A program made the translations under genes and the position numbers. Below, piece by piece: positions 1 through 47,703 of a stretch of 64,000 bases of DNA. Within the stretch, counting starts at the first letter, position 1. Every line of letters begins with the position of its first letter. The stretch is from an uncultured virus (IMG/VR IMGVR_UViG_3300001919_000065) (Duplodnaviria; Heunggongvirae; Uroviricota; Caudoviricetes), in IMG/VR virus record IMGVR_UViG_3300001919_000065; one strand, given 5' to 3'. The notes below the pieces were generated by a model, which worked only from the letters and a program-made list of their open reading frames with translations, searched no databases and was not told the origin of the DNA.

Positions 1-12
1 TCAAAAAACTAT

Positions 13-40
13 TTGACAACACTCTAAAATCTGCTAAAGT
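13..40 (+). promoter_or_regulatory. sigma70-type early promoter
   Basis: TTGACA-N16-TAAAGT with TG extended -10; same unit recurs at 561, 2569, 3791. Confidence 0.75.
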
Positions 41-88
41 GGAATCATCGAAAGGGGGAACAACCCGGAACAATAAAAGAATAATACT

Positions 89-517
89 ATGAAAGAAAAT
101 GAGATTGAAGTATGGGGAACTACGGAAGCGCAAGACGTTTCATCAAACGCCGTTAATAGCCGAGGTGAAAAGTGCCGCATTGTGCGCACTTATGACTACT
201 ACCCGGACGCGCAGGAGATTCATGAACACGTCAGTATTCAGAATGCCGTTAGCATTAAACTTGTAGAGTTTAACGCTTACAAGGTGCGAGATTTGATTGA
301 AAATACAGAAAGGTTCCGTGCTCGTCTTTCCGATTGCACCACCACCGTTCCTACGTGCGAGCCGAAAACTGAACCGTATGTGAGAAGCAACTCTATTAGG
401 GTCTTCCGGGAAAGAGCCGTGCAATATTATGGCACAAACTTTGATTCTTTTACCCTTTACACAGATAGAAACTTTTTGGATATTCCTATATCTCTCGTAG
501 TTCTCTTCACCATTTAA
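89..517 (+). CDS. hypothetical early protein
   Basis: 142-aa ORF after promoter and A-rich leader. Confidence 0.7.
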   Translation: MKENEIEVWGTTEAQDVSSNAVNSRGEKCRIVRTYDYYPDAQEIHEHVSIQNAVSIKLVEFNAYKVRDLIENTERFRARLSDCTTTVPTCEPKTEPYVRSNSIRVFRERAVQYYGTNFDSFTLYTDRNFLDIPISLVVLFTI

Positions 518-560
518 GAATCAGGCACTTATGATTGTGTCATACAACTCAAAAAACAAT

Positions 561-588
561 TTGACAAGATAAGAAAATCTGATAAATT
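561..588 (+). promoter_or_regulatory. sigma70-type early promoter
   Basis: TTGACA-N16-TAAATT, TG extension. Confidence 0.75.
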
Positions 589-656
589 GAAATCATCAAC
601 GGGGGAACAACCCGGACAACGAAAAGAAACACTAAAACAATAGAAAGAATAAGACA

Positions 657-1208
657 ATGAACAATCAAATCATTAACATTCCCGCCACCACATTCACGGG
701 CCTCGCAAATCATTTCAGGAACATGCACCCGGAAGGAATCAAAGGTGCGGTAGACGTACATTCTCCGGACTTTTATGAAGGGGCGGGCCTGTATGCCTAC
801 ATTGAAGGAGATAATGACGGCGGGCGCGTCTCCGCCGTGTGGGCAATCCTTCCCACTGGTGAAATTGCCACCCTAGTAAAAAACCCGGGTGCGGTAGTCC
901 CATTGGATGACGTTTTCGGCTCTATCCGTCAGCAGGGGGGAAAGTGGCTTTTCGCACTTTCAACTGATAAGCTCGTAGACCTTTATACCTCGCAAGACTA
1001 TGTTCCCGTTGCATGGCTACAGTGGGACAACGCACAAGCCCCTGCCTCATGGGATTATAACCGCTATGGCCGTCCTAGTCCTGCGTTTTTCGTCCACCGC
1101 TACTATCTGACGCCCGCACAATGCGAGACCTACGAGGCAGGAAGGCACATGGTGTGCACCTACGATGAAGGCTTCAACCTTGTCCTCAAACTGATAAGCC
1201 GGGTTTAA
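657..1208 (+). CDS. hypothetical early protein
   Basis: 183-aa ORF with conserved leader AAAACAATAGAAAGAATAAGACA-ATG. Confidence 0.8.
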   Translation: MNNQIINIPATTFTGLANHFRNMHPEGIKGAVDVHSPDFYEGAGLYAYIEGDNDGGRVSAVWAILPTGEIATLVKNPGAVVPLDDVFGSIRQQGGKWLFALSTDKLVDLYTSQDYVPVAWLQWDNAQAPASWDYNRYGRPSPAFFVHRYYLTPAQCETYEAGRHMVCTYDEGFNLVLKLISRV

Positions 1209-1277
1209 TTTCTGAAAAATTACACCGCCCTAACATACTAACATACTAACAATAAAACAATAGAAAGAAATAAGACA

Positions 1278-1706
1278 ATGAGCATATATACAGAACACGC
1301 AAAAAGATTCCTTGAAAATTGCGGAATCCGCATTACCGGAAAGTATAAGGGAAGATATGTTCCCCTGTGGGATAAAGAGCCGCATAGTACATGGGAAATT
1401 GTCCTGCGGCGTGAAGACCGTCAGAAGGGAGAAAGGCATGCAATCTTTATCACGTTCTACCAGTCACACGCAGATAAGTACAAGACGCCCACCGCATATG
1501 ACGTGCTTGCCTGTCTGTGTAAGTCCGATTGCGGCACTTATGAGGATTTTTGTGAAGATATGGGATTGCCCGAGTATGACGAGGAAACGGGGGAACGCAA
1601 TATGCTTTCCTATAGCATGTACACGGGCGCATGTCACGAGTACGCAGAACTTAAAACCTTCTTCACCCGCCCCGGTGAATGGGAAGAGCTGGAAGAGATT
1701 TATTGA
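1278..1706 (+). CDS. conserved phage hypothetical protein
   Basis: PTAYDVLACL..D.GTYEDFC motif recalled from other phage hypotheticals; conserved leader. Confidence 0.8.
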   Translation: MSIYTEHAKRFLENCGIRITGKYKGRYVPLWDKEPHSTWEIVLRREDRQKGERHAIFITFYQSHADKYKTPTAYDVLACLCKSDCGTYEDFCEDMGLPEYDEETGERNMLSYSMYTGACHEYAELKTFFTRPGEWEELEEIY

Positions 1707-1761
1707 ACCTTGAAAAGATACGCCGCTCTATAAAATAAAACAATAGAAAGAAAACTAAGCC

Positions 1762-2151
1762 ATGAAAGACATATCAGAATTACATATCAGAAAGGAAATG
1801 AAAGTAGAAGGCAACGGAAAAGTTCACCTTACCATTGAAAGCTTTAATTCCTTGCACCGAAAAGAGTATACCCTTTCCCCCGCCATGTGGGCAGCTTCGG
1901 AAGTACTACAGGACAAGACGGCCAAGCCGGGAAGCATGTACCTGAAAGATACGTTTTCTATCTATCGGATTGGTGCTTATGACGTTATGATAATTTCATC
2001 CGTGAATGAATCTCCATATTTAACCCTTGAAAGATTATCGCTAGCGGAAAAGATAGCATGGCTTCCTTTCGGCATTGAAAACGTCCAACAGGTAGAAGAT
2101 ACCTGGCATTCTAATTCACAACATGTATCTTATCTGCGTATCATTCAATGA
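1762..2151 (+). CDS. hypothetical early protein
   Basis: 129-aa ORF, conserved leader. Confidence 0.75.
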   Translation: MKDISELHIRKEMKVEGNGKVHLTIESFNSLHRKEYTLSPAMWAASEVLQDKTAKPGSMYLKDTFSIYRIGAYDVMIISSVNESPYLTLERLSLAEKIAWLPFGIENVQQVEDTWHSNSQHVSYLRIIQ

Positions 2152-2227
2152 ATATGAAACCCGTTAAAGCTGAATAATTACACCGCCCTAACATATTAAC
2201 AATAAAACAACAGAAAGAAATAAGACA

Positions 2228-2530
2228 ATGAATGAAGACGAAAAGAAAAAGGCAATCGATATTTTAGCCGCTCATATCCGGGAAACACGCCCCTATCTTT
2301 TCCAGTTGTCCGCACGCCATGATGAAGAGCTGGAACTAATCGCCGCACTAGCGGAAGCAACCGGAAGCAAGCTTACCTTGCTTGTCAGGGGCCGGGAATC
2401 TGGGGAAATGCGGGCAATCAACATTGCGGACTATCGCCCTCATGAAATGGTAGTCAGCCGTGCCTTTATTTCAGACCCACTATGTCTCGCACTGGAGGAA
2501 GCGGGCGCAAGGATTGTGTATAACCGTTAA
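2228..2530 (+). CDS. hypothetical early protein
   Basis: 100-aa ORF, conserved leader. Confidence 0.75.
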   Translation: MNEDEKKKAIDILAAHIRETRPYLFQLSARHDEELELIAALAEATGSKLTLLVRGRESGEMRAINIADYRPHEMVVSRAFISDPLCLALEEAGARIVYNR

Positions 2531-2568
2531 GTTCCCCCCTGAAAAATTACACCGCCCTAAAAAAGTAT

Positions 2569-2626
2569 TTGACAAGATAATAAAATCCGATAAACTAAAA
2601 TCAGCAAGCGGGAGATTGTCTCCCGC
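2569..2626 (+). promoter_or_regulatory. early promoter plus 5' stem-loop
   Basis: TTGACA-N16-TAAACT; hairpin GCGGGAGA-TTG-TCTCCCGC at 2608-2626. Confidence 0.8.
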
Positions 2627-2654
2627 ATAACCTCAAACCTAAAAAGCATATATC

Positions 2655-2984
2655 ATGAACACTCAAATCACATTACAAGACAACGAAAACCCGGCATGGG
2701 CATTCTACGAAAACGGCGAAGGCCTTCTGTCTCTTATCTTTTTCGCCAAGTCATCCTCGCATGCACGCCCCATTGCCGCCCTGCTTAACATATACCCGTG
2801 GGACGCCCTGCCCACAATAGATGATTCTGACATTGTGCGCTTGTGGCAGGCGGTGAAAGAAAATGAGTTAGGGGCTTGGTGTACCTACGACCCGGCGGAA
2901 ATTAACCGGTATCTGGAACAACGGTTCTGCCAGCCAGTAGCTAAAGCTTCCCATGCTCAATTATTCCCGCTTCCCATTGAATAA
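2655..2984 (+). CDS. hypothetical early protein
   Basis: 109-aa ORF after promoter. Confidence 0.75.
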   Translation: MNTQITLQDNENPAWAFYENGEGLLSLIFFAKSSSHARPIAALLNIYPWDALPTIDDSDIVRLWQAVKENELGAWCTYDPAEINRYLEQRFCQPVAKASHAQLFPLPIE

Positions 2985-3038
2985 CTACGCCGCCCTATAA
3001 AATCAAACAACAATAAAACAATAGAAAGCAACCATATT

Positions 3039-3569
3039 ATGAAGACTACAACTAAACCGGAAGTTCTTAAAGTATCAGACTATGCCCTTATCCATGACAT
3101 TCCCACCTATGCCCTCAATTACTTGGCGTGTGGGGAAGATGAAAGCCTCGCCCCTGACGACATTGAAAACATTGAAGAGTGGGAAAAAGATTATTTCCTA
3201 GTTTGCCCTGTGGACGACCAGCCGGAAGCACATTTCACCAGCACGCCCGCCTTTGGCTTGCCCTGTGACTGTGTAAAATACTATGTCCTGCCCCGCTACA
3301 TGGGCGCCGTCCTGTCATGGATAAATCCGGGTTGTCGGATGACTAACTGCTACCTTGAACTCAAGCTTACAGACGGAAGCCGGGTAAAGGTGTACCTGAA
3401 AGGAAATCAAACCCTGCGTAGTACTATCCGCAACCTGATTGGCTTGGTAGAAACGGGACATACTTTCACCGATATGAATGGGCACAATGTATCGCCCCGT
3501 CCCCGTGATATCGTTAATTTCTGGGTTCGGACGATGCACGGCCAAACACTGGCAACTGGAAGAATATAA
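3039..3569 (+). CDS. hypothetical protein (N-terminus DUF6926-like)
   Basis: IPTYALNYL..G....L...D...I..W and F...PAFGLPCDC pattern; conserved leader. Confidence 0.7.
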   Translation: MKTTTKPEVLKVSDYALIHDIPTYALNYLACGEDESLAPDDIENIEEWEKDYFLVCPVDDQPEAHFTSTPAFGLPCDCVKYYVLPRYMGAVLSWINPGCRMTNCYLELKLTDGSRVKVYLKGNQTLRSTIRNLIGLVETGHTFTDMNGHNVSPRPRDIVNFWVRTMHGQTLATGRI

Positions 3570-3601
3570 ACCACTTGCGGCTTGTTCCGGGGAATCAAAA
3601 T

Positions 3602-3617
3602 TGTTCCACGTGGAACA
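3602..3617. promoter_or_regulatory. parS: parS-like centromere site (ParB binding)
   Basis: Perfect 16-bp palindrome TGTTCCACGTGGAACA; fits the chromosomal parS consensus TGTTNCACGTGAAACA with one symmetric substitution. Confidence 0.75.
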
Positions 3618-3758
3618 TTTAAACCCCGGAATCCCCGGAACCCGTCAAATAACTCTAACCAAATAGAAAGAAAAAGTAGAAAGACAAAGGAATAATTCCC
3701 GCCCCCGGAATGCGGGGGATATCGGGTGCAACGGGTTCCGGGGATTCCGGGGTTTAAA
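3618..3758. repeat. 28-bp perfect inverted repeat with 85-bp spacer
   Basis: TTTAAACCCCGGAATCCCCGGAACCCGT (3618-3645) and its reverse complement (3731-3758). Confidence 0.95.
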
Positions 3759-3790
3759 GCTGAATAACTACGCCGCTCTATAAAAAGTAT

Positions 3791-3847
3791 TTGACAAGAT
3801 AAGAAAATCTGCTAAACTAAAATCATCCAGCGGGGGACAAACCCCGC
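3791..3847 (+). promoter_or_regulatory. early promoter plus 5' stem-loop
   Basis: TTGACA-N16-TAAACT; hairpin GCGGGG..CCCCGC at 3830-3847. Confidence 0.8.
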
Positions 3848-3891
3848 AACAATAAACCAAACAACAATAAACTAATAGAAAGAATAAGACA

Positions 3892-4659
3892 ATGAATACT
3901 ACATCCGCAAACCTCAACAGTGCCGCCGCAATCAACGCCCTTACTGAACGGGCAAATGCCGCTATCGATGCCGCCGTAGACAAGGTGCGTAACGACCTCA
4001 TGGAGAATAACCTCATGGAGAATAACCTCGTGGGTGACTATGTCATCTCGGTGCGCAACATGGGGCATAACCTGAAACAGGTTGTCCGAGATAATGCCGC
4101 CTATGGTCTGGCCGCCCTTATTACTCACCGCATGCTGGCACTAGTGGCCGAACGCCTCCACCAGTTTGAAGGCAAGGTCTATAACGTCCGAGTAGAACGG
4201 ATGATGAATGACTGTCTGGCCGCCGCAATCGAACAAAGCGTTGAAGCGGACATTAAAATCCGAGCCTATATAGATAGGAGTCACTACTCATGGCCGCAAG
4301 TGGTGTTTCATCATATCCTCCCCGGCATGTATGATGCCGTGAATATTTCCTTTAACTTTGACGTCAATGAGCTGACGCAGGGGCAGAAGCGGATTGTCAC
4401 CGGGAGGGACATGGAGAAATTCATTGAAGGAATCTTCAATGATATGGTTCGCCTTGATACCAAGCTTCAAGAAATTGAAGATTCAAACTACCGCATTTGC
4501 AATTCCGACTACGTGTGCGCCTATTTTACACAAGCCGTTAAAGTGGAAGAACAAGTGGAGAGCTTGAAGCAAGGCCTTAAAAACCTGACTGGTGTACAAT
4601 ACTATCGCTTCGACTATAACCACACCCCCGTTTCTACCCTTCCCTCCTACAGGGCATGA
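3892..4659 (+). CDS. hypothetical protein
   Basis: 255-aa ORF; internal 15-bp tandem repeat (LMENN) at about 3995-4033. Confidence 0.8.
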   Translation: MNTTSANLNSAAAINALTERANAAIDAAVDKVRNDLMENNLMENNLVGDYVISVRNMGHNLKQVVRDNAAYGLAALITHRMLALVAERLHQFEGKVYNVRVERMMNDCLAAAIEQSVEADIKIRAYIDRSHYSWPQVVFHHILPGMYDAVNISFNFDVNELTQGQKRIVTGRDMEKFIEGIFNDMVRLDTKLQEIEDSNYRICNSDYVCAYFTQAVKVEEQVESLKQGLKNLTGVQYYRFDYNHTPVSTLPSYRA

Positions 4660-4728
4660 CTTAAACCCCGCCCCAGCTACCCTATTTATTAGAACCCTCA
4701 AATAACTCTAACCAAACAATAAAACACC

Positions 4729-23405: not shown

Positions 23406-24560
23406 TTATTTTCGGAAGTCCAAGTGAGTGAACTCCGGTCCCTTCATCAGTTCAGTGTAGAGGGTGAGCTTCGCTTGCGGGTCTTTCTTCCGCAGGGCCT
23501 GATACTGGGCGTACTGGCGGGCGAAGCGGGGGTCCCGGATATTCAATCTATTCCTGAACATGTTGCTAAGTTCCTTTATTTTGGCGCGTTCCAATTTTTC
23601 GAGGGTCTTAATCTCCTTGCCATACTTTCCCGGCTGGGCGTACATGGTTCGGACGCGGAGGTATGTTTGCGCCTGTGCTCTTGCTTCGGGGCTGGCCGTA
23701 TCATCCCTCAAGGTTCGTAGCATACTCTCGGCAGTTCCAGTACCCGCAGTCGTCGGGACGCTCGTGGGTATGGGAGCATTGCCGGAGGGGAGAGCAGAGG
23801 CGGGGAACCTAGAGCCGGAAGGGGCGGCCGTGGTTCTCGCCGCCACACCCGCGGTGGTTCCCGCGGCGGTTCCCGCGGTAGCTCCCGCGGTGGGCACATT
23901 CTTGGTCTGGCTCTCTACAAACTTGCTATATATCGCGTTCCTCTGCGCTTCCGGCATGGACATAAATACCTTGTACTTATCCGGGCCAAGCATCTTCTCC
24001 GCATGCGCATAGAACCCAGCCGTGGAGGTGTCGGGGCTAGCGGTTGGAGCGGTAGCCGTCGCTTGCCGGGGTGTAGCCGTCGCTTGCGTCGGCATAGCCG
24101 GAGATATGGTGGGCATCTGCCCCCGGCTTATGTTCTGGTCCACGCCACGAAGCATGAGCCTGTCCTCCGCAGAGAGTTTCCCCGCCGCGGCTTGTTGCAT
24201 GCCCGCCGCATAGGTCGCCCGTTGCTGGGCGGCGTAGGCCGCGCTGTTGGGGTCGACCGCTCCCGGCACTGCTGGTTCAGTAATCCCCCGCCCATAGGGA
24301 CTAGGAGACTGGGCCGCCGCGGGTGCCGCGGATGCGGGGGGATTCTTGATGCCGTGGTTACTATTGGCCGCGGCGATGGTGTTCATCTCCTTCGCGTCGA
24401 CGGGTTTGTTCGGGTCGTTGTTATTCATTGGACGGAGGGGGATGTCGGGGTTCGTCTTCGGAAGCACCTCGTCCATCGTCTTCTGCTTAATGGACTTGGC
24501 GGCGGGGATGCCCCCGCTCGCGCTCGTCTCGCTCGATATGTCTGTACGTTTGGTAGCCAT
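23406..24560 (-). CDS. low-complexity Ala/Pro/Thr-rich protein, probable internal virion protein
   Basis: 384 aa; lies before giant gene; 12-bp tandem repeats near 23850. Confidence 0.6.
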   Translation of the reverse strand: MATKRTDISSETSASGGIPAAKSIKQKTMDEVLPKTNPDIPLRPMNNNDPNKPVDAKEMNTIAAANSNHGIKNPPASAAPAAAQSPSPYGRGITEPAVPGAVDPNSAAYAAQQRATYAAGMQQAAAGKLSAEDRLMLRGVDQNISRGQMPTISPAMPTQATATPRQATATAPTASPDTSTAGFYAHAEKMLGPDKYKVFMSMPEAQRNAIYSKFVESQTKNVPTAGATAGTAAGTTAGVAARTTAAPSGSRFPASALPSGNAPIPTSVPTTAGTGTAESMLRTLRDDTASPEARAQAQTYLRVRTMYAQPGKYGKEIKTLEKLERAKIKELSNMFRNRLNIRDPRFARQYAQYQALRKKDPQAKLTLYTELMKGPEFTHLDFRK

Positions 24561-30718: not shown

Positions 30719-30968
30719 TGAAGATTGGTTGTTCCTTTTCGACGAAGGTAATCCCCGTGTCGGATTCTTCCGTCGTGCATTTCTTAATCTTGTCCCGAAG
30801 TTCGATTGCCATTTCGAGGGCGAAGTCTCTTGTCGGAAGTCCCTTCTCATCCTCATTCCTGTGATAGGGGAACATGGCAATACGGTAGTTTCGATGAATC
30901 ACCGCAATGATTCCTGCTCGCGGGTATTCCATTAAGAAGGTTTCCAGCAGGTATTTATCGTTGGTCAT
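30711..30968 (-). CDS. tandem paralog family, copy 7
   Basis: G...V......A.F.Y......G..TRD.A pattern; start 30968. Confidence 0.75.
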   Translation of the reverse strand: MTNDKYLLETFLMEYPRAGIIAVIHRNYRIAMFPYHRNEDEKGLPTRDFALEMAIELRDKIKKCTTEESDTGITFVEKEQPIFND

Positions 30969-31203
30969 TGTTGTTCCTTTCCCGTTTAAGTAGTTTGAAT
31001 CCTTTTTCGGTTTCGATAATCGTGCTCTTCTCAATTTTGTGGGCAATCTTCGTTGCCAGTTTCTTTGCCGCGTCTCGCGTCATGAAGCCCCGTTCGTCCC
31101 ACTCTGTGCAGTAGAAAAATTGGGCAACGGCAATCCCATCATATTCCACTTCGAACCCGCCGAGCATTTTATTCTCGAAAATTCTTACTTTGTCGTTGGT
31201 CAT
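30955..31203 (-). CDS. tandem paralog family, copy 6
   Basis: FFYCTE..ERGFMTRDAAKKLA. Confidence 0.8.
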   Translation of the reverse strand: MTNDKVRIFENKMLGGFEVEYDGIAVAQFFYCTEWDERGFMTRDAAKKLATKIAHKIEKSTIIETEKGFKLLKRERNNNDQR

Positions 31204-31429
31204 TGTTGTTCCTTTTAAGTTTAAATCCTTTTTTGGTTTTGATGGTCATACTATTTTCAATTTTGCGGACTAGCTTCTCGGTCAGCTTCTTGGCTTGCTT
31301 CTTGGTGAAATGTCCTTCCTCGCCTTCCGTGCAATAGTAAAAGGTGGCAACGCAACGGTTTTCAAGCAGGACCCAGAAAAATCCGGTAACGGGGTCATCT
31401 ACGACGGTAATATTTAGAGTGTCAGTCAT
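31169..31429 (-). CDS. tandem paralog family, copy 5
   Basis: FYYCTEGEEGHFTKKQAKKL; start 31429. Confidence 0.8.
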   Translation of the reverse strand: MTDTLNITVVDDPVTGFFWVLLENRCVATFYYCTEGEEGHFTKKQAKKLTEKLVRKIENSMTIKTKKGFKLKRNNNDQRQSKNFRE

Positions 31430-31658
31430 CGATGTTGTTCCTTTCCAATTTGATTCCCTTTTCGGTTTCGATAATCGTGCTCTTCTCAATTTTGCGGGCG
31501 AGCTTGTTGGCTAGTTTCTTAGCTTGCTTCTTGGTGAAGAAGCCACTTTCATCTTCCCCGCAATAGTTGAAAATGGCGACGCAACTTCCTCTGTGCATGA
31601 CACGGAACATTCCGCTAGTAGGGCAGTCACAAATATAGGTATCTGAATCGTTATTCAT
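31422..31658 (-). CDS. tandem paralog family, copy 4
   Basis: FNYCGEDESGFFTKKQAKKLA; start 31658. Confidence 0.8.
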   Translation of the reverse strand: MNNDSDTYICDCPTSGMFRVMHRGSCVAIFNYCGEDESGFFTKKQAKKLANKLARKIEKSTIIETEKGIKLERNNIDD

Positions 31659-31890
31659 CGATGTTGAAAATGATTTGGTTAAGTGATACTCCCTCGATGG
31701 TACAAACTGTCCCTCTGCTAACGATGTAGCGGGCAATCTTCGTTGCCAGTTTCTTTGCGGAATCTCGTGTCATATATCCTTGTTCACCAGAGCCAGTGCA
31801 GTAAAGAAAATCTGCAATGACACTTCCACAGTGAGTTACTCGGAAGAATCCAAATCCTTTGTCTTCTAAAATAGCTACTTTGTCATTCAT
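31651..31890 (-). CDS. tandem paralog family, copy 3
   Basis: FLYCTGSGEQGYMTRDSAKKLA. Confidence 0.8.
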   Translation of the reverse strand: MNDKVAILEDKGFGFFRVTHCGSVIADFLYCTGSGEQGYMTRDSAKKLATKIARYIVSRGTVCTIEGVSLNQIIFNIDE

Positions 31891-31893
31891 GAT

Positions 31894-32142
31894 TTATTCG
31901 TCTTGGATTGTACAGTCTGTCGGGTAAAGGTCAATGCCCCTTTCTGTCATAACAGGATTCGCGTGGATGAGATGGCGAGCAACCATCTTCGCCATTTCTA
32001 TAGCCCTTTCGCGCGTGGGATAACACTGTTCCTTCTCGTCTCCCTCCCGACAATAGTTAAAGATGGCAAAGGTATCTCCCTCATATTTCACCTTGAGGAT
32101 TCCTACTCTCTTATTATCTACAATACTAATCTCGTTGGTCAT
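31894..32142 (-). CDS. tandem paralog family, copy 2
   Basis: FNYCREGDE..CYPTRERA. Confidence 0.8.
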   Translation of the reverse strand: MTNEISIVDNKRVGILKVKYEGDTFAIFNYCREGDEKEQCYPTRERAIEMAKMVARHLIHANPVMTERGIDLYPTDCTIQDE

Positions 32143-32387
32143 GATTCTTGGATTGGAGTGTGTTTAGGAAATAGGCTAATGCCATCCGTAGTTTGGACTG
32201 CGTTATAGCCAAAAAGGTTACGAACAAAGCCACGGGCTATTTCCAATGCGCTATCTCGGGTAAGATATTGGACTTTATCCTCGTCTCCATTGTCATCACA
32301 ATAGAAGACTTCCACCAGAGTTGCTCTTCTATACTTTACCTGAATAATCCCCATTTCGGGGTAGTCAATAATTGTTGTCTTTTCCAT
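32139..32387 (-). CDS. tandem paralog family, copy 1
   Basis: VFYCDDNGDE..YLTRDSA. Confidence 0.8.
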   Translation of the reverse strand: MEKTTIIDYPEMGIIQVKYRRATLVEVFYCDDNGDEDKVQYLTRDSALEIARGFVRNLFGYNAVQTTDGISLFPKHTPIQES

Positions 32388-45013: not shown

Positions 45014-46270
45014 TTAGAGGCCCGGCACTGCCGCGGGGGTACTTACCAGAGAGCCAACGGGCTTACCGTCAGCACCAACGAGTTCGCGGCCAGCGGTCGT
45101 GCGAATGTGTCGGATGACTACACCGTGACGCGGGAAGACAGGCATCGGAGCGGCAGAAAGCGTCGCGATGAACATGCCCTGCGTACCCATGTAGTTATCA
45201 CCGTTGTCCTTGTTGTTCACCCAAACCAGCTCACCAGCGTAAGTCACGGGGTCCCACTTGGCCTGACCGTAGGCAGACACCGGACGAGGAACGAGGGACT
45301 TGTACACGTCCTTCACAAAGATAATCGTATCTTCGTAGGGGGCGTTCATGTACGCGGGGTTCGGCACATAGCGATTACCAACAGTCGTTTCCACCTTGAT
45401 ATACTGGGGAACTTCCACCCACTTCTGACCAGTCGGCTTGGTGTCGTCGAAGGTGTAGCGGGGGTTCATGTTGTCCACGATGTAGGTAAAGCCCTTGTAC
45501 GTCCACTTCACGCCCAGCTGACGCAGGAGGGTAGCATCCTTGCCTTCCGCGGCCTCTGCGAAGTTCCAGTCCTTGCGGATAACTTCGTTATGACGCAGGA
45601 TGAAGTCCACGGTGTCCTTAGACGTGTAAGCCAAGAAGACAGGGGAACCTTGGTCCATCAGAGCGGCAGATTCGCCAGCACCTTCATTGATGAGCAACTG
45701 CCAAGCTTGGTTCATCAGGTCGTCGTTCAGAGCGGCTTCGGGCTTAACTTCCGGCATGGAGTTAATATCGTTGCTCACGACATCGAGACCAACAACACCC
45801 GCCTTCGTGGGGATGAGTTTGTAGCTGGCGATGTTGATGTAGCTCTGACGGTAGAAGCGAGACCAAGTATTACCGACGGCACGGACCAACTGCTTCACCG
45901 CATTCTCGGCCTGTTGCTTAGCCTGCCAAGACTGACGCATACGGAGTACGTCCAGTTTCTGGGAGGAAAGCCTCGTGATGAAGCGGCTGTAGGAGTATTC
46001 CGTAGCCCCAGTATCATTTACCGTAATCGGAATCTGGTTGGAGGTGGAAGCGAGGTTAATGTTCATCCATTCGGCACGGGGGTCCGTAGCACCGAAGGTT
46101 GCGATGCGCCCGGAATCACCAACACCGTCAGTCCATTCTCCCGTCATAATCATCTGGGAGTTCCACGGAGAAGTACGAGCAAAGGTGCTGAACATGTTGG
46201 CGTTAAGAAGGTTGGTCATCGTGACCAGCTTCAATTCTTGGGCCTGAATATCGTTAGGAGAAGTAGCCAT
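45014..46270 (-). CDS. major capsid protein
   Basis: 418 aa; follows portal and scaffold; long leader and downstream terminator. Confidence 0.75.
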   Translation of the reverse strand: MATSPNDIQAQELKLVTMTNLLNANMFSTFARTSPWNSQMIMTGEWTDGVGDSGRIATFGATDPRAEWMNINLASTSNQIPITVNDTGATEYSYSRFITRLSSQKLDVLRMRQSWQAKQQAENAVKQLVRAVGNTWSRFYRQSYINIASYKLIPTKAGVVGLDVVSNDINSMPEVKPEAALNDDLMNQAWQLLINEGAGESAALMDQGSPVFLAYTSKDTVDFILRHNEVIRKDWNFAEAAEGKDATLLRQLGVKWTYKGFTYIVDNMNPRYTFDDTKPTGQKWVEVPQYIKVETTVGNRYVPNPAYMNAPYEDTIIFVKDVYKSLVPRPVSAYGQAKWDPVTYAGELVWVNNKDNGDNYMGTQGMFIATLSAAPMPVFPRHGVVIRHIRTTAGRELVGADGKPVGSLVSTPAAVPGL

Positions 46271-46482
46271 TTGTAAATTAAATTTGGTTTAATTTGCAAC
46301 GCCTAGTTCTCTTTGGAAGATTTTGTTTTGGGGTCTTACGCGGTCATGGCAGGGTCAGGACCAAGAATTTTCACACCTGCATAAAGGTTTGTTTTGGTTT
46401 GCTCGCGGGAAAGCAAGAATGGGGCACCGCATTTGATGCTCCATTCTTGTCATAAAATTACCAGTATGTCAAGGAAAATTTA

Positions 46483-47703
46483 TTATAATCCGAAGGCACT
46501 ACCGATAATGTCCCCGACTGCGGTCGGCCCGGCGGGTGGCTGGGTCTCCGGAGCTTTGGAGCTACCACTGTTAGCGGAGGGGCGGGCCTTGCGGAGTTTG
46601 GCCACCTTCACGTTGAGAGCCTCGATTGTCGCGCGAGCATCTGCCAGTTCCTTAACCATGAGTTCGGCCAGTGCGCCGTCCATGAAGGAACCATTATTTA
46701 TCTTGTGAGCAAGATGGCGGGCATGCTTCACATTCTCTTCGGTAATCTCCGTGGTCATGCCCAGTTCCTTGGCGCGTTCCTTCATCGCTTCCAACGTGTA
46801 GTTGTCGAGATTGACGGTGTAGGTCCCGGCCTCCGACTTGCCGCCGCGGCTGGCTTTCAACTCTTCCACATACTTGTCGGCTTCGGCCTGATAGTTTCCG
46901 TGGGCGACAATGGCCGCGTCGCGGACCTTAGCCATGCGGACAAATTTGAACATGGCAGAATCGCTGATGCCCAGTTCCTTCCCAATGGCCTCATACGCTT
47001 CTTCCCGGTCGTACTCGTCGAGGTCGGGATTAAGGGCAACTTCATTCAGCTTGTCCATGTCGAGGGAGGCTCCGCTCGCGCGGGCAATCTCCACAAGTTT
47101 GGCGTTAGCCTTATTGTACGGGGCAGTTACATTGGTCTTGTATTCTTCGGTTGCGGTGAAGGCATAGCCACGTACAATTTCTCGCAGAGATTCAAGCTCT
47201 TCATTGCTTGACGTGGACTTACCCGCTTCTTCCAGCTTGGCCTTCAAGTCCGCGATTTCTTTCTTCGCGCCCCTCAACTGGACGCGCATTTCAGCGAATG
47301 CCTTGCTCGCCGCCTTGCTAGCCCGTTGTTCCTTCGGCCCATCATCTTTCTTTTCTTCCTTCTTCCCTTCTTCGTTTTCTTCCTCTTCGTTTTCTTCCTC
47401 TTCGTTTTCCCCCTCTTCGTTCTGTTCTTCCTCGGTTTCCTCGGATTCCGTGTCATCCGAGGGAACCGGGGTTCCCGTGGTATTGACTACTTCATCATCC
47501 GCGATGCGGGGGCCAGCATCTGGCATGACTACCGTACCGTCCGGGGATTCAATGGGAGCCGTGGGGTTAGCGGGATTGGTGGGTTGAGTGGAATCCGTGG
47601 AATCCGGGGCGAACAGGGTCTGTTCGAAAATGTTATGTATGTCGTTGTGAATAGCACCATCTATGATGCCCTCCGCTACTGCGGGAATATTTACGTTGTC
47701 CAT
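46483..47703 (-). CDS. capsid scaffolding protein
   Basis: Acidic disordered N-terminus plus coiled coil; between portal and capsid. Confidence 0.7.
   Translation of the reverse strand: MDNVNIPAVAEGIIDGAIHNDIHNIFEQTLFAPDSTDSTQPTNPANPTAPIESPDGTVVMPDAGPRIADDEVVNTTGTPVPSDDTESEETEEEQNEEGENEEEENEEEENEEGKKEEKKDDGPKEQRASKAASKAFAEMRVQLRGAKKEIADLKAKLEEAGKSTSSNEELESLREIVRGYAFTATEEYKTNVTAPYNKANAKLVEIARASGASLDMDKLNEVALNPDLDEYDREEAYEAIGKELGISDSAMFKFVRMAKVRDAAIVAHGNYQAEADKYVEELKASRGGKSEAGTYTVNLDNYTLEAMKERAKELGMTTEITEENVKHARHLAHKINNGSFMDGALAELMVKELADARATIEALNVKVAKLRKARPSANSGSSKAPETQPPAGPTAVGDIIGSAFGL

Follow-up and report, generated by a model that had tools for sequence, protein, structure and literature searches.

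Host-type parS and dif-like sites in ~70-kb phages linked to Akkermansia by CRISPR spacers

A 64,000-nucleotide stretch of an uncultured caudoviricete genome (IMG/VR record IMGVR_UViG_3300001919_000065; hereafter the window), which is part of a gut phage genome of ~70 kb, carries the sequence TGTTCCACGTGGAACA at positions 3602-3617, and we consider it very probable that the chromosomal ParB of the phage's Akkermansia host loads at this 16-mer. Comparison of the non-coding region of the phage family, which lies outside the window, revealed in addition a 28-bp dif-like site with an 11-6-11 layout. We posit, with about an even chance of being right, that parS and dif serve a phage genome kept as a non-integrated circle across host divisions, either in a carrier state or as a plasmid-like prophage.

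The palindrome is exact over 16 bp and matches the chromosomal-type parS consensus (PMC7383237), with a chance expectation of ~6e-5 for the exact pattern in the window. It ranks second by length among the perfect palindromes of the window and is the sole site there within three mismatches of the consensus, the loose search itself being at chance level (45 of 100 shuffles). The original prediction of a perfect parS in a gene-free gap of the early region, adjoining a 28-bp inverted repeat, was confirmed. The gap measures 323 bp and is bounded by two early genes on the plus strand, one encoding a DUF6926 protein (3039-3569) and one of no known family (3892-4659). Just upstream of the 16-mer, which has no strand, lies a 19-bp segment (3582-3600, plus strand) that begins with the same letters as the left parS arm and is optional, being missing in L001, L009 and L015 with the 16-mer untouched. 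Sigma-70-type early promoters are found on the plus strand both upstream of the site (2569-2596, a member of a repeat family) and 174 bp downstream of it (3791-3818), and the latter would be within reach of ParB spreading.

The window encodes a ligase, ThyX, Pol A, a helicase, a primase-helicase, a terminase and a resolvase, while no Rfam families or tRNAs were found in it. As originally proposed, it lacks recognizable ParA, ParB and integrase: none of its 73 ORFs matched the respective Pfam families. This also held beyond the window, where ParB_N was found in none of 13 phage records (12 of the family and one other), ParA (AAA_31) in none of four and tyrosine integrase in none of five, with positive controls detected in each case. 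The phage genomes searched thus contain no parA or parB that would make up a complete phage-encoded ParABS system.

Further features of the window concern its early genes and its composition. The early genes of positions 1-4700 are cassettes separated by repeated promoter/leader sequences; relatives have them in shuffled order and with different content, and skips and back-jumps sharing 11 letters are seen in the contigs. The motif TGTCATAC (window position 538) lies upstream of many early promoters in all branches, an inverted copy ends the non-coding region, and we regard the motif as a candidate operator. Six paralogous genes of ~80 amino acids are located side by side at 30958-32387. GATC does not occur in the window (0 vs 405 expected), and GCWGC, CCWGG and CTCAG are nearly absent. 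Such avoidance varies by branch (GATC is kept in G017 and G018), which points to differing host restriction systems.

The host search was opened from the Akkermansiaceae genome G022, whose genus is represented by 154 genomes, one per species. Some of these genomes supplied 106 loci, from which 949 spacers were taken; 30 of the spacers matched genomes of the phage family with up to six mismatches (reversed control: 0). Three matches to the window were exact over 34 of 34 positions, with protospacers at 142-175 and 207-240 (both spacers of the Akkermansia-genus genome G114) and at 24427-24460 (G155, Akkermansia sp.). Host spacers also matched the relatives G180, G183 and G185, and in G107 and G155 the ParB protein carries an Akkermansia name. 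On the evidence of the CRISPR spacers, the host is Akkermansia. No matches were obtained with 3947 spacers from arrays with the repeat reported for A. muciniphila (PMC8530359).

Each of the five CRISPR-linked hosts contains the window 16-mer once in exact form, together with one single-mismatch copy 4.6-5.6 kb away. In G107, the one host for which the origin was shown, the pair is located at a GC-skew switch (957-958 kb) beside dnaN and DnaA-box-like sequences. The site had been assigned to the widespread chromosomal type, and this assignment is borne out both by the consensus and by its identity with the origin-proximal site of the host. The parS pattern was matched in 78 of 81 genus genomes, mostly as clusters of the two phage alleles, and Collinsella and Mailhella genomes have a TT/AA form. 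The CA/TG central allele of the phages is absent from both sites of the five linked hosts, but common in other members of the genus. Host ParB displays R-S-D-G at the four specificity positions, and RXXG marks the parS-specific ParB type (PMC7383237). A parA gene is present in G114, about 98 kb from parB, and in G107 a distance of ~0.8 Mb separates parB from parS and the origin (163465 vs 956703). The proposed recruitment of SMC through parS was not supported: the SMC hinge was detected in none of the five hosts (controls 10 of 14), in agreement with PMC10197239, according to which A. muciniphila has no known condensin.

In order to compare close relatives, viral loci were fetched with the downstream gene (3892-4659), which yielded 24 loci, 22 of them with parS. 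The palindrome occupies two positions. Site B, the accessory early-region copy that equals the perfect host parS in the window, was found in 19 further loci and always lies 3' of the DUF6926 gene. Site A was found in 15 loci, 3-5 kb upstream of site B in a repeat-rich non-coding region. Both sites were present in 12 loci and site A alone in three; the nine loci without site A run out at a contig end, either within the first early genes or shortly before them. Site B is gone together with the inverted repeat in L024, and the L013 locus is truncated. Over 14 distinct sequences, conservation reaches 95% in site A, as opposed to 56% and 59% in the 40 bp on either side, and variation across all 35 parS copies is confined to the central two bases. 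These patterns support conservation of parS under selection in close relatives. The relative G002 is 85-97% identical to the window over most blocks, and, extrapolating from G002 and the other relatives, the window genome would have a dif and a site A of its own in the non-coding region that the window lacks. Searches of a phage collection for isolated relatives gave no matches by DNA, capsid or terminase and distant matches only by ligase, Pol A and ThyX; a capsid search of genome contigs gave no match.

The inverted repeat next to parS consists of two perfect 28-bp arms on the plus strand (3618-3645, starting directly after parS, and 3731-3758) around an 85-nt loop, and the region 3570-3790 folds as RNA with z = -8.2. 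A joint role of parS and the repeat is not supported: L018 and L021 keep the repeat without parS, so that we treat the two as separate elements, and a role of the repeat as part of the centromere is ruled out on the same grounds. Its single variable pair is compensated in two of 20 sequences and mismatched in nine. Six letters are common to the repeat ends and the parS arms, given which site B may have been copied into the inverted-repeat locus. As an element of 141 bp (3618-3758) with an inner hairpin and no Rfam match, the repeat is a possible small RNA or processing site.

The wider family was resolved into four deep branches in a tree of 13 genomes built on terminase, capsid and portal, with identities among branches of 57-63% for terminase and 50-53% for capsid. 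All four branches contain parS, namely the window clade, G017 (one site), G180 (two sites) and G185 (four perfect copies). Relatives have up to four parS places, and G004, G006 and G017 have a single site. The only 16-mers common to all four branches are three that overlap parS and two from one purine tract. Six relatives (G011, G012, G013, G018, G183 and G184) have no parS, and we therefore judge it to be accessory and non-essential in the family. The expectation of conservation in relatives was upheld in the close relatives and failed in these six. A contrast between sister phages is offered by G017 and G018, which are collinear and about 94% identical, the former with parS and the latter, a linear record of 95% completeness, without. 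Across the family, no real gene tracks the presence of parS. In three branches the sites are grouped at early promoters or between them; G017 and G185 also have sites located between late genes. An independent gain of the G017 site was considered and withdrawn, as the junction in question is occupied by parS in G185 as well. Viral contigs in general contained more than 121 parS stretches compared to 24 for the reversed palindrome, a count to which host fragments may contribute; none of 12 other parS-bearing viral records that were checked belongs to this family, and 2 of 121 match the family by DNA.

The dif-like site is located at 69676-69703 in G002 and was found in 11 of the 13 family genomes compared; the remaining two, the window and G018, end before the dif region. 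The pattern was present in 10 of 21 records searched. All five hosts have a single chromosomal dif near the terminus as well as XerC/D-like and FtsK genes, with the dif of G107 at 2.313 Mb, within the second skew switch and beside a XerC/D-like gene. The arms of the phage site are those of the host for both XerC and XerD, except in G180 with its degenerate XerC arm. The central 6 bp occur in six forms across the family, none of them that of the host, although G017 and G185 share the XerC-side 3 bp with it. Within the window clade, dif lies 388-822 bp from site A, and all 10 dif loci with at least 1 kb of downstream sequence have site A. What is new here is that the family genomes spanning this region carry a host-type dif with host arms, and dif is more constant in the family than parS.

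Several observations were made around this site. KOPS-like polarity towards dif amounted to 41 antisense occurrences vs 28 expected, an excess that comes mainly from G002 and is mostly explained by codon use. A non-coding stretch of 1.26 kb that ends at dif is 93% identical between G002 (68444-69706) and G011 (46115-47373), whose clades share genes with about 70% DNA identity; this would reflect either an exchange in the recent past or strong constraint. In several branches, a second palindrome family (arm TTTACAA) occurs near dif, namely in G002 (~69900), G011 (47484), G180 (~26500 and ~26870) and G185. A host-type dif without parS was also found in G190, G192 and 11 other dif loci of an unrelated group of ~40-kb phages. 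Its centre has a seventh form that likewise differs from that of the host, 2 of 49 ORFs match G002, and a spacer of G107 matches the dif region of G190 over 30 of 30 positions.

ParB binding, circular persistence and partition are what we infer from these sites. XerD needs FtsK at division, and standard Xer recombination needs matching centres (bioRxiv 2026.06.12.731946); a single chromosomal parS together with par genes stabilises plasmids (PMC7022226). Because of this dependence on FtsK and this stabilisation, parS and dif would fit best on circular DNA that is carried through division. We posit that host ParB-CTP would load at the phage parS, that host ParA would then separate the phage copies, and that phage dimers would be resolved by host XerCD and FtsK, acting at the dif that the phage itself carries. 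In evolutionary terms, dif would be the fixed part and parS an add-on that was repeatedly gained, copied and lost. The episome or carrier state, one of several roles originally suggested for parS, is independently supported by the presence of dif. A broader reading, which we offer tentatively and hold to be somewhat more doubtful, is that the ~70-kb Akkermansia phages may represent a host-run mini-chromosome, mimicking parS and dif without partition, resolution or integration proteins of their own, with a private dif centre that would block fusion with the chromosome. Several results count against a carrier state. The family terminase was found in none of the 154 host-genus genomes (one per species), neither integrated nor as a separate contig, with phage controls at five of five, and a common plasmid prophage might have appeared as a separate contig among them. 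The genome also looks lytic, with its own Pol A, primase-helicase, ligase and ThyX, and no repressor gene was identified. Furthermore, six relatives manage without parS, and the CA/TG phage allele is missing from the two sites of the linked hosts. The degenerate XerC arm of the G180 dif and the explanation of most of the KOPS-like polarity by codon use likewise weigh against it.

The same gene content would suit a role of host ParB in the lytic cycle, in which ParB loaded on phage DNA positions incoming or replicating genomes, damps early promoters as it spreads, or is drawn away from the host origin by titration. With two parS sites in the host, tens of phage copies with one to four sites each would outnumber them, and the clustering of sites at early promoters or between them, seen in three branches, is in line with the repression of genes beside parS by ParB in P. 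aeruginosa (PMC7022226). Such a role, however, leaves the more constant dif unexplained, as standard use of dif needs FtsK at division; in G017 and G185 sites are also found between late genes, and one site per genome is enough in G004, G006 and G017. We therefore regard a purely lytic role as rather unlikely. Integration at the host dif via XerCD, as in IMEXs, with parS acting only before integration or after excision, would account for a dif-like site with host arms in a phage without integrase. The different centres do not contradict it, as attP overlap regions of IMEXs may differ from dif and G017 and G185 share half of the centre with the host. Integration nevertheless becomes improbable given the absence of the family terminase from the host genomes and its recovery from all phage controls. 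Moreover, the longest contigs among those listed are about 76 kb, the host dif flanks tested matched none of 34 viral dif loci, and in X5 and X7 the phage dif is spanned by contigs, with no loose end at dif among those listed, although contigs alone cannot exclude integration. One to four perfect parS sites at the terminus would also be expected to compete with the two at the origin.

Least probable, in our judgement, is that the palindrome is an RNA hairpin or terminator, or the operator of a phage protein, and matches parS incidentally. The minus strand did score as terminator-like, at chance level, and in G017 and G185 parS forms the core of an intergenic hairpin; other relatives have unrelated hairpins there (in a comparison listing without G183, G185 and the window). 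For a hairpin any palindrome would suffice, but what is found again, at differing locations in the four branches, is precisely the 16-mer of the host. No phage gene tracks parS, and the collinearity and about 94% identity of G017 and G018 likewise speak against an incidental match. The idea of a LexA box was unsupported: Verrucomicrobia LexA boxes have a 4-bp centre, that of parS measures 6 bp, and LexA-type boxes were not enriched.

A host parS on a phage is already known from phi29, which has five parS sites of the host type, through which Spo0J segregates phage DNA into the prespore (PMC2731898, citing primary work). The Akkermansia phages resemble phi29 and Nf in carrying a host-type parS without a par system of their own. 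They differ in that phi29 is linear, protein-primed and trapped in the spore under Spo0A repression, whereas the Akkermansia phage genome maps as a circle and carries dif, with a parS that is predicted to bind host ParB. Akkermansia is non-sporulating. As in chromosomal ParABS systems, the 16-mer equals the host origin site (the CC/GG variant of Akkermansia) and the host ParB is of the RXXG type; unlike in these systems, it is located on a phage with no par genes in cis, and its hosts have no detected SMC hinge. A 28-bp dif-like site with 11-bp arms, a 6-bp centre and no integrase of its own is shared with IMEXs, that is, CTXphi, VGJphi, TLCphi and the IMEX-type gokushovirus prophages, and with the dif of plasmids and secondary chromosomes. 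What sets the present family apart is a 70-kb tailed phage with canonical arms and 6-bp centre, paired with parS and with no integrated copy found in 154 genomes. Pseudo-dif sites have been described in filamentous phages (PMC3025954). The pairing of a partition site with a dimer-resolution site recalls plasmid prophages of the P1 type. P1 has ParAB-parS plus Cre-lox and encodes its own proteins and sites, whereas both sites of the Akkermansia phages are host mimics without an encoded cognate protein. Our literature search, judged on titles and the beginnings of abstracts and with thin coverage of subscription papers, found no report of parS or of a parS-dif pair in Akkermansia phages.

If the mini-chromosome reading is true, these phages would live in a state akin to lysogeny, and lifestyle predictors that go by genes would class them as lytic. 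The collinear pair G017 and G018 represents a natural experiment on the presence of parS, and the parS-dif pair may aid the construction of stable Akkermansia vectors. With only two native parS sites in the host, phage DNA could also disturb host segregation. The arrangement would extend the phi29 trick to a host without spores and without a recognised SMC, and it suggests a testable route by which seemingly lytic gut phages may persist in a much-studied gut bacterium without an integrase.
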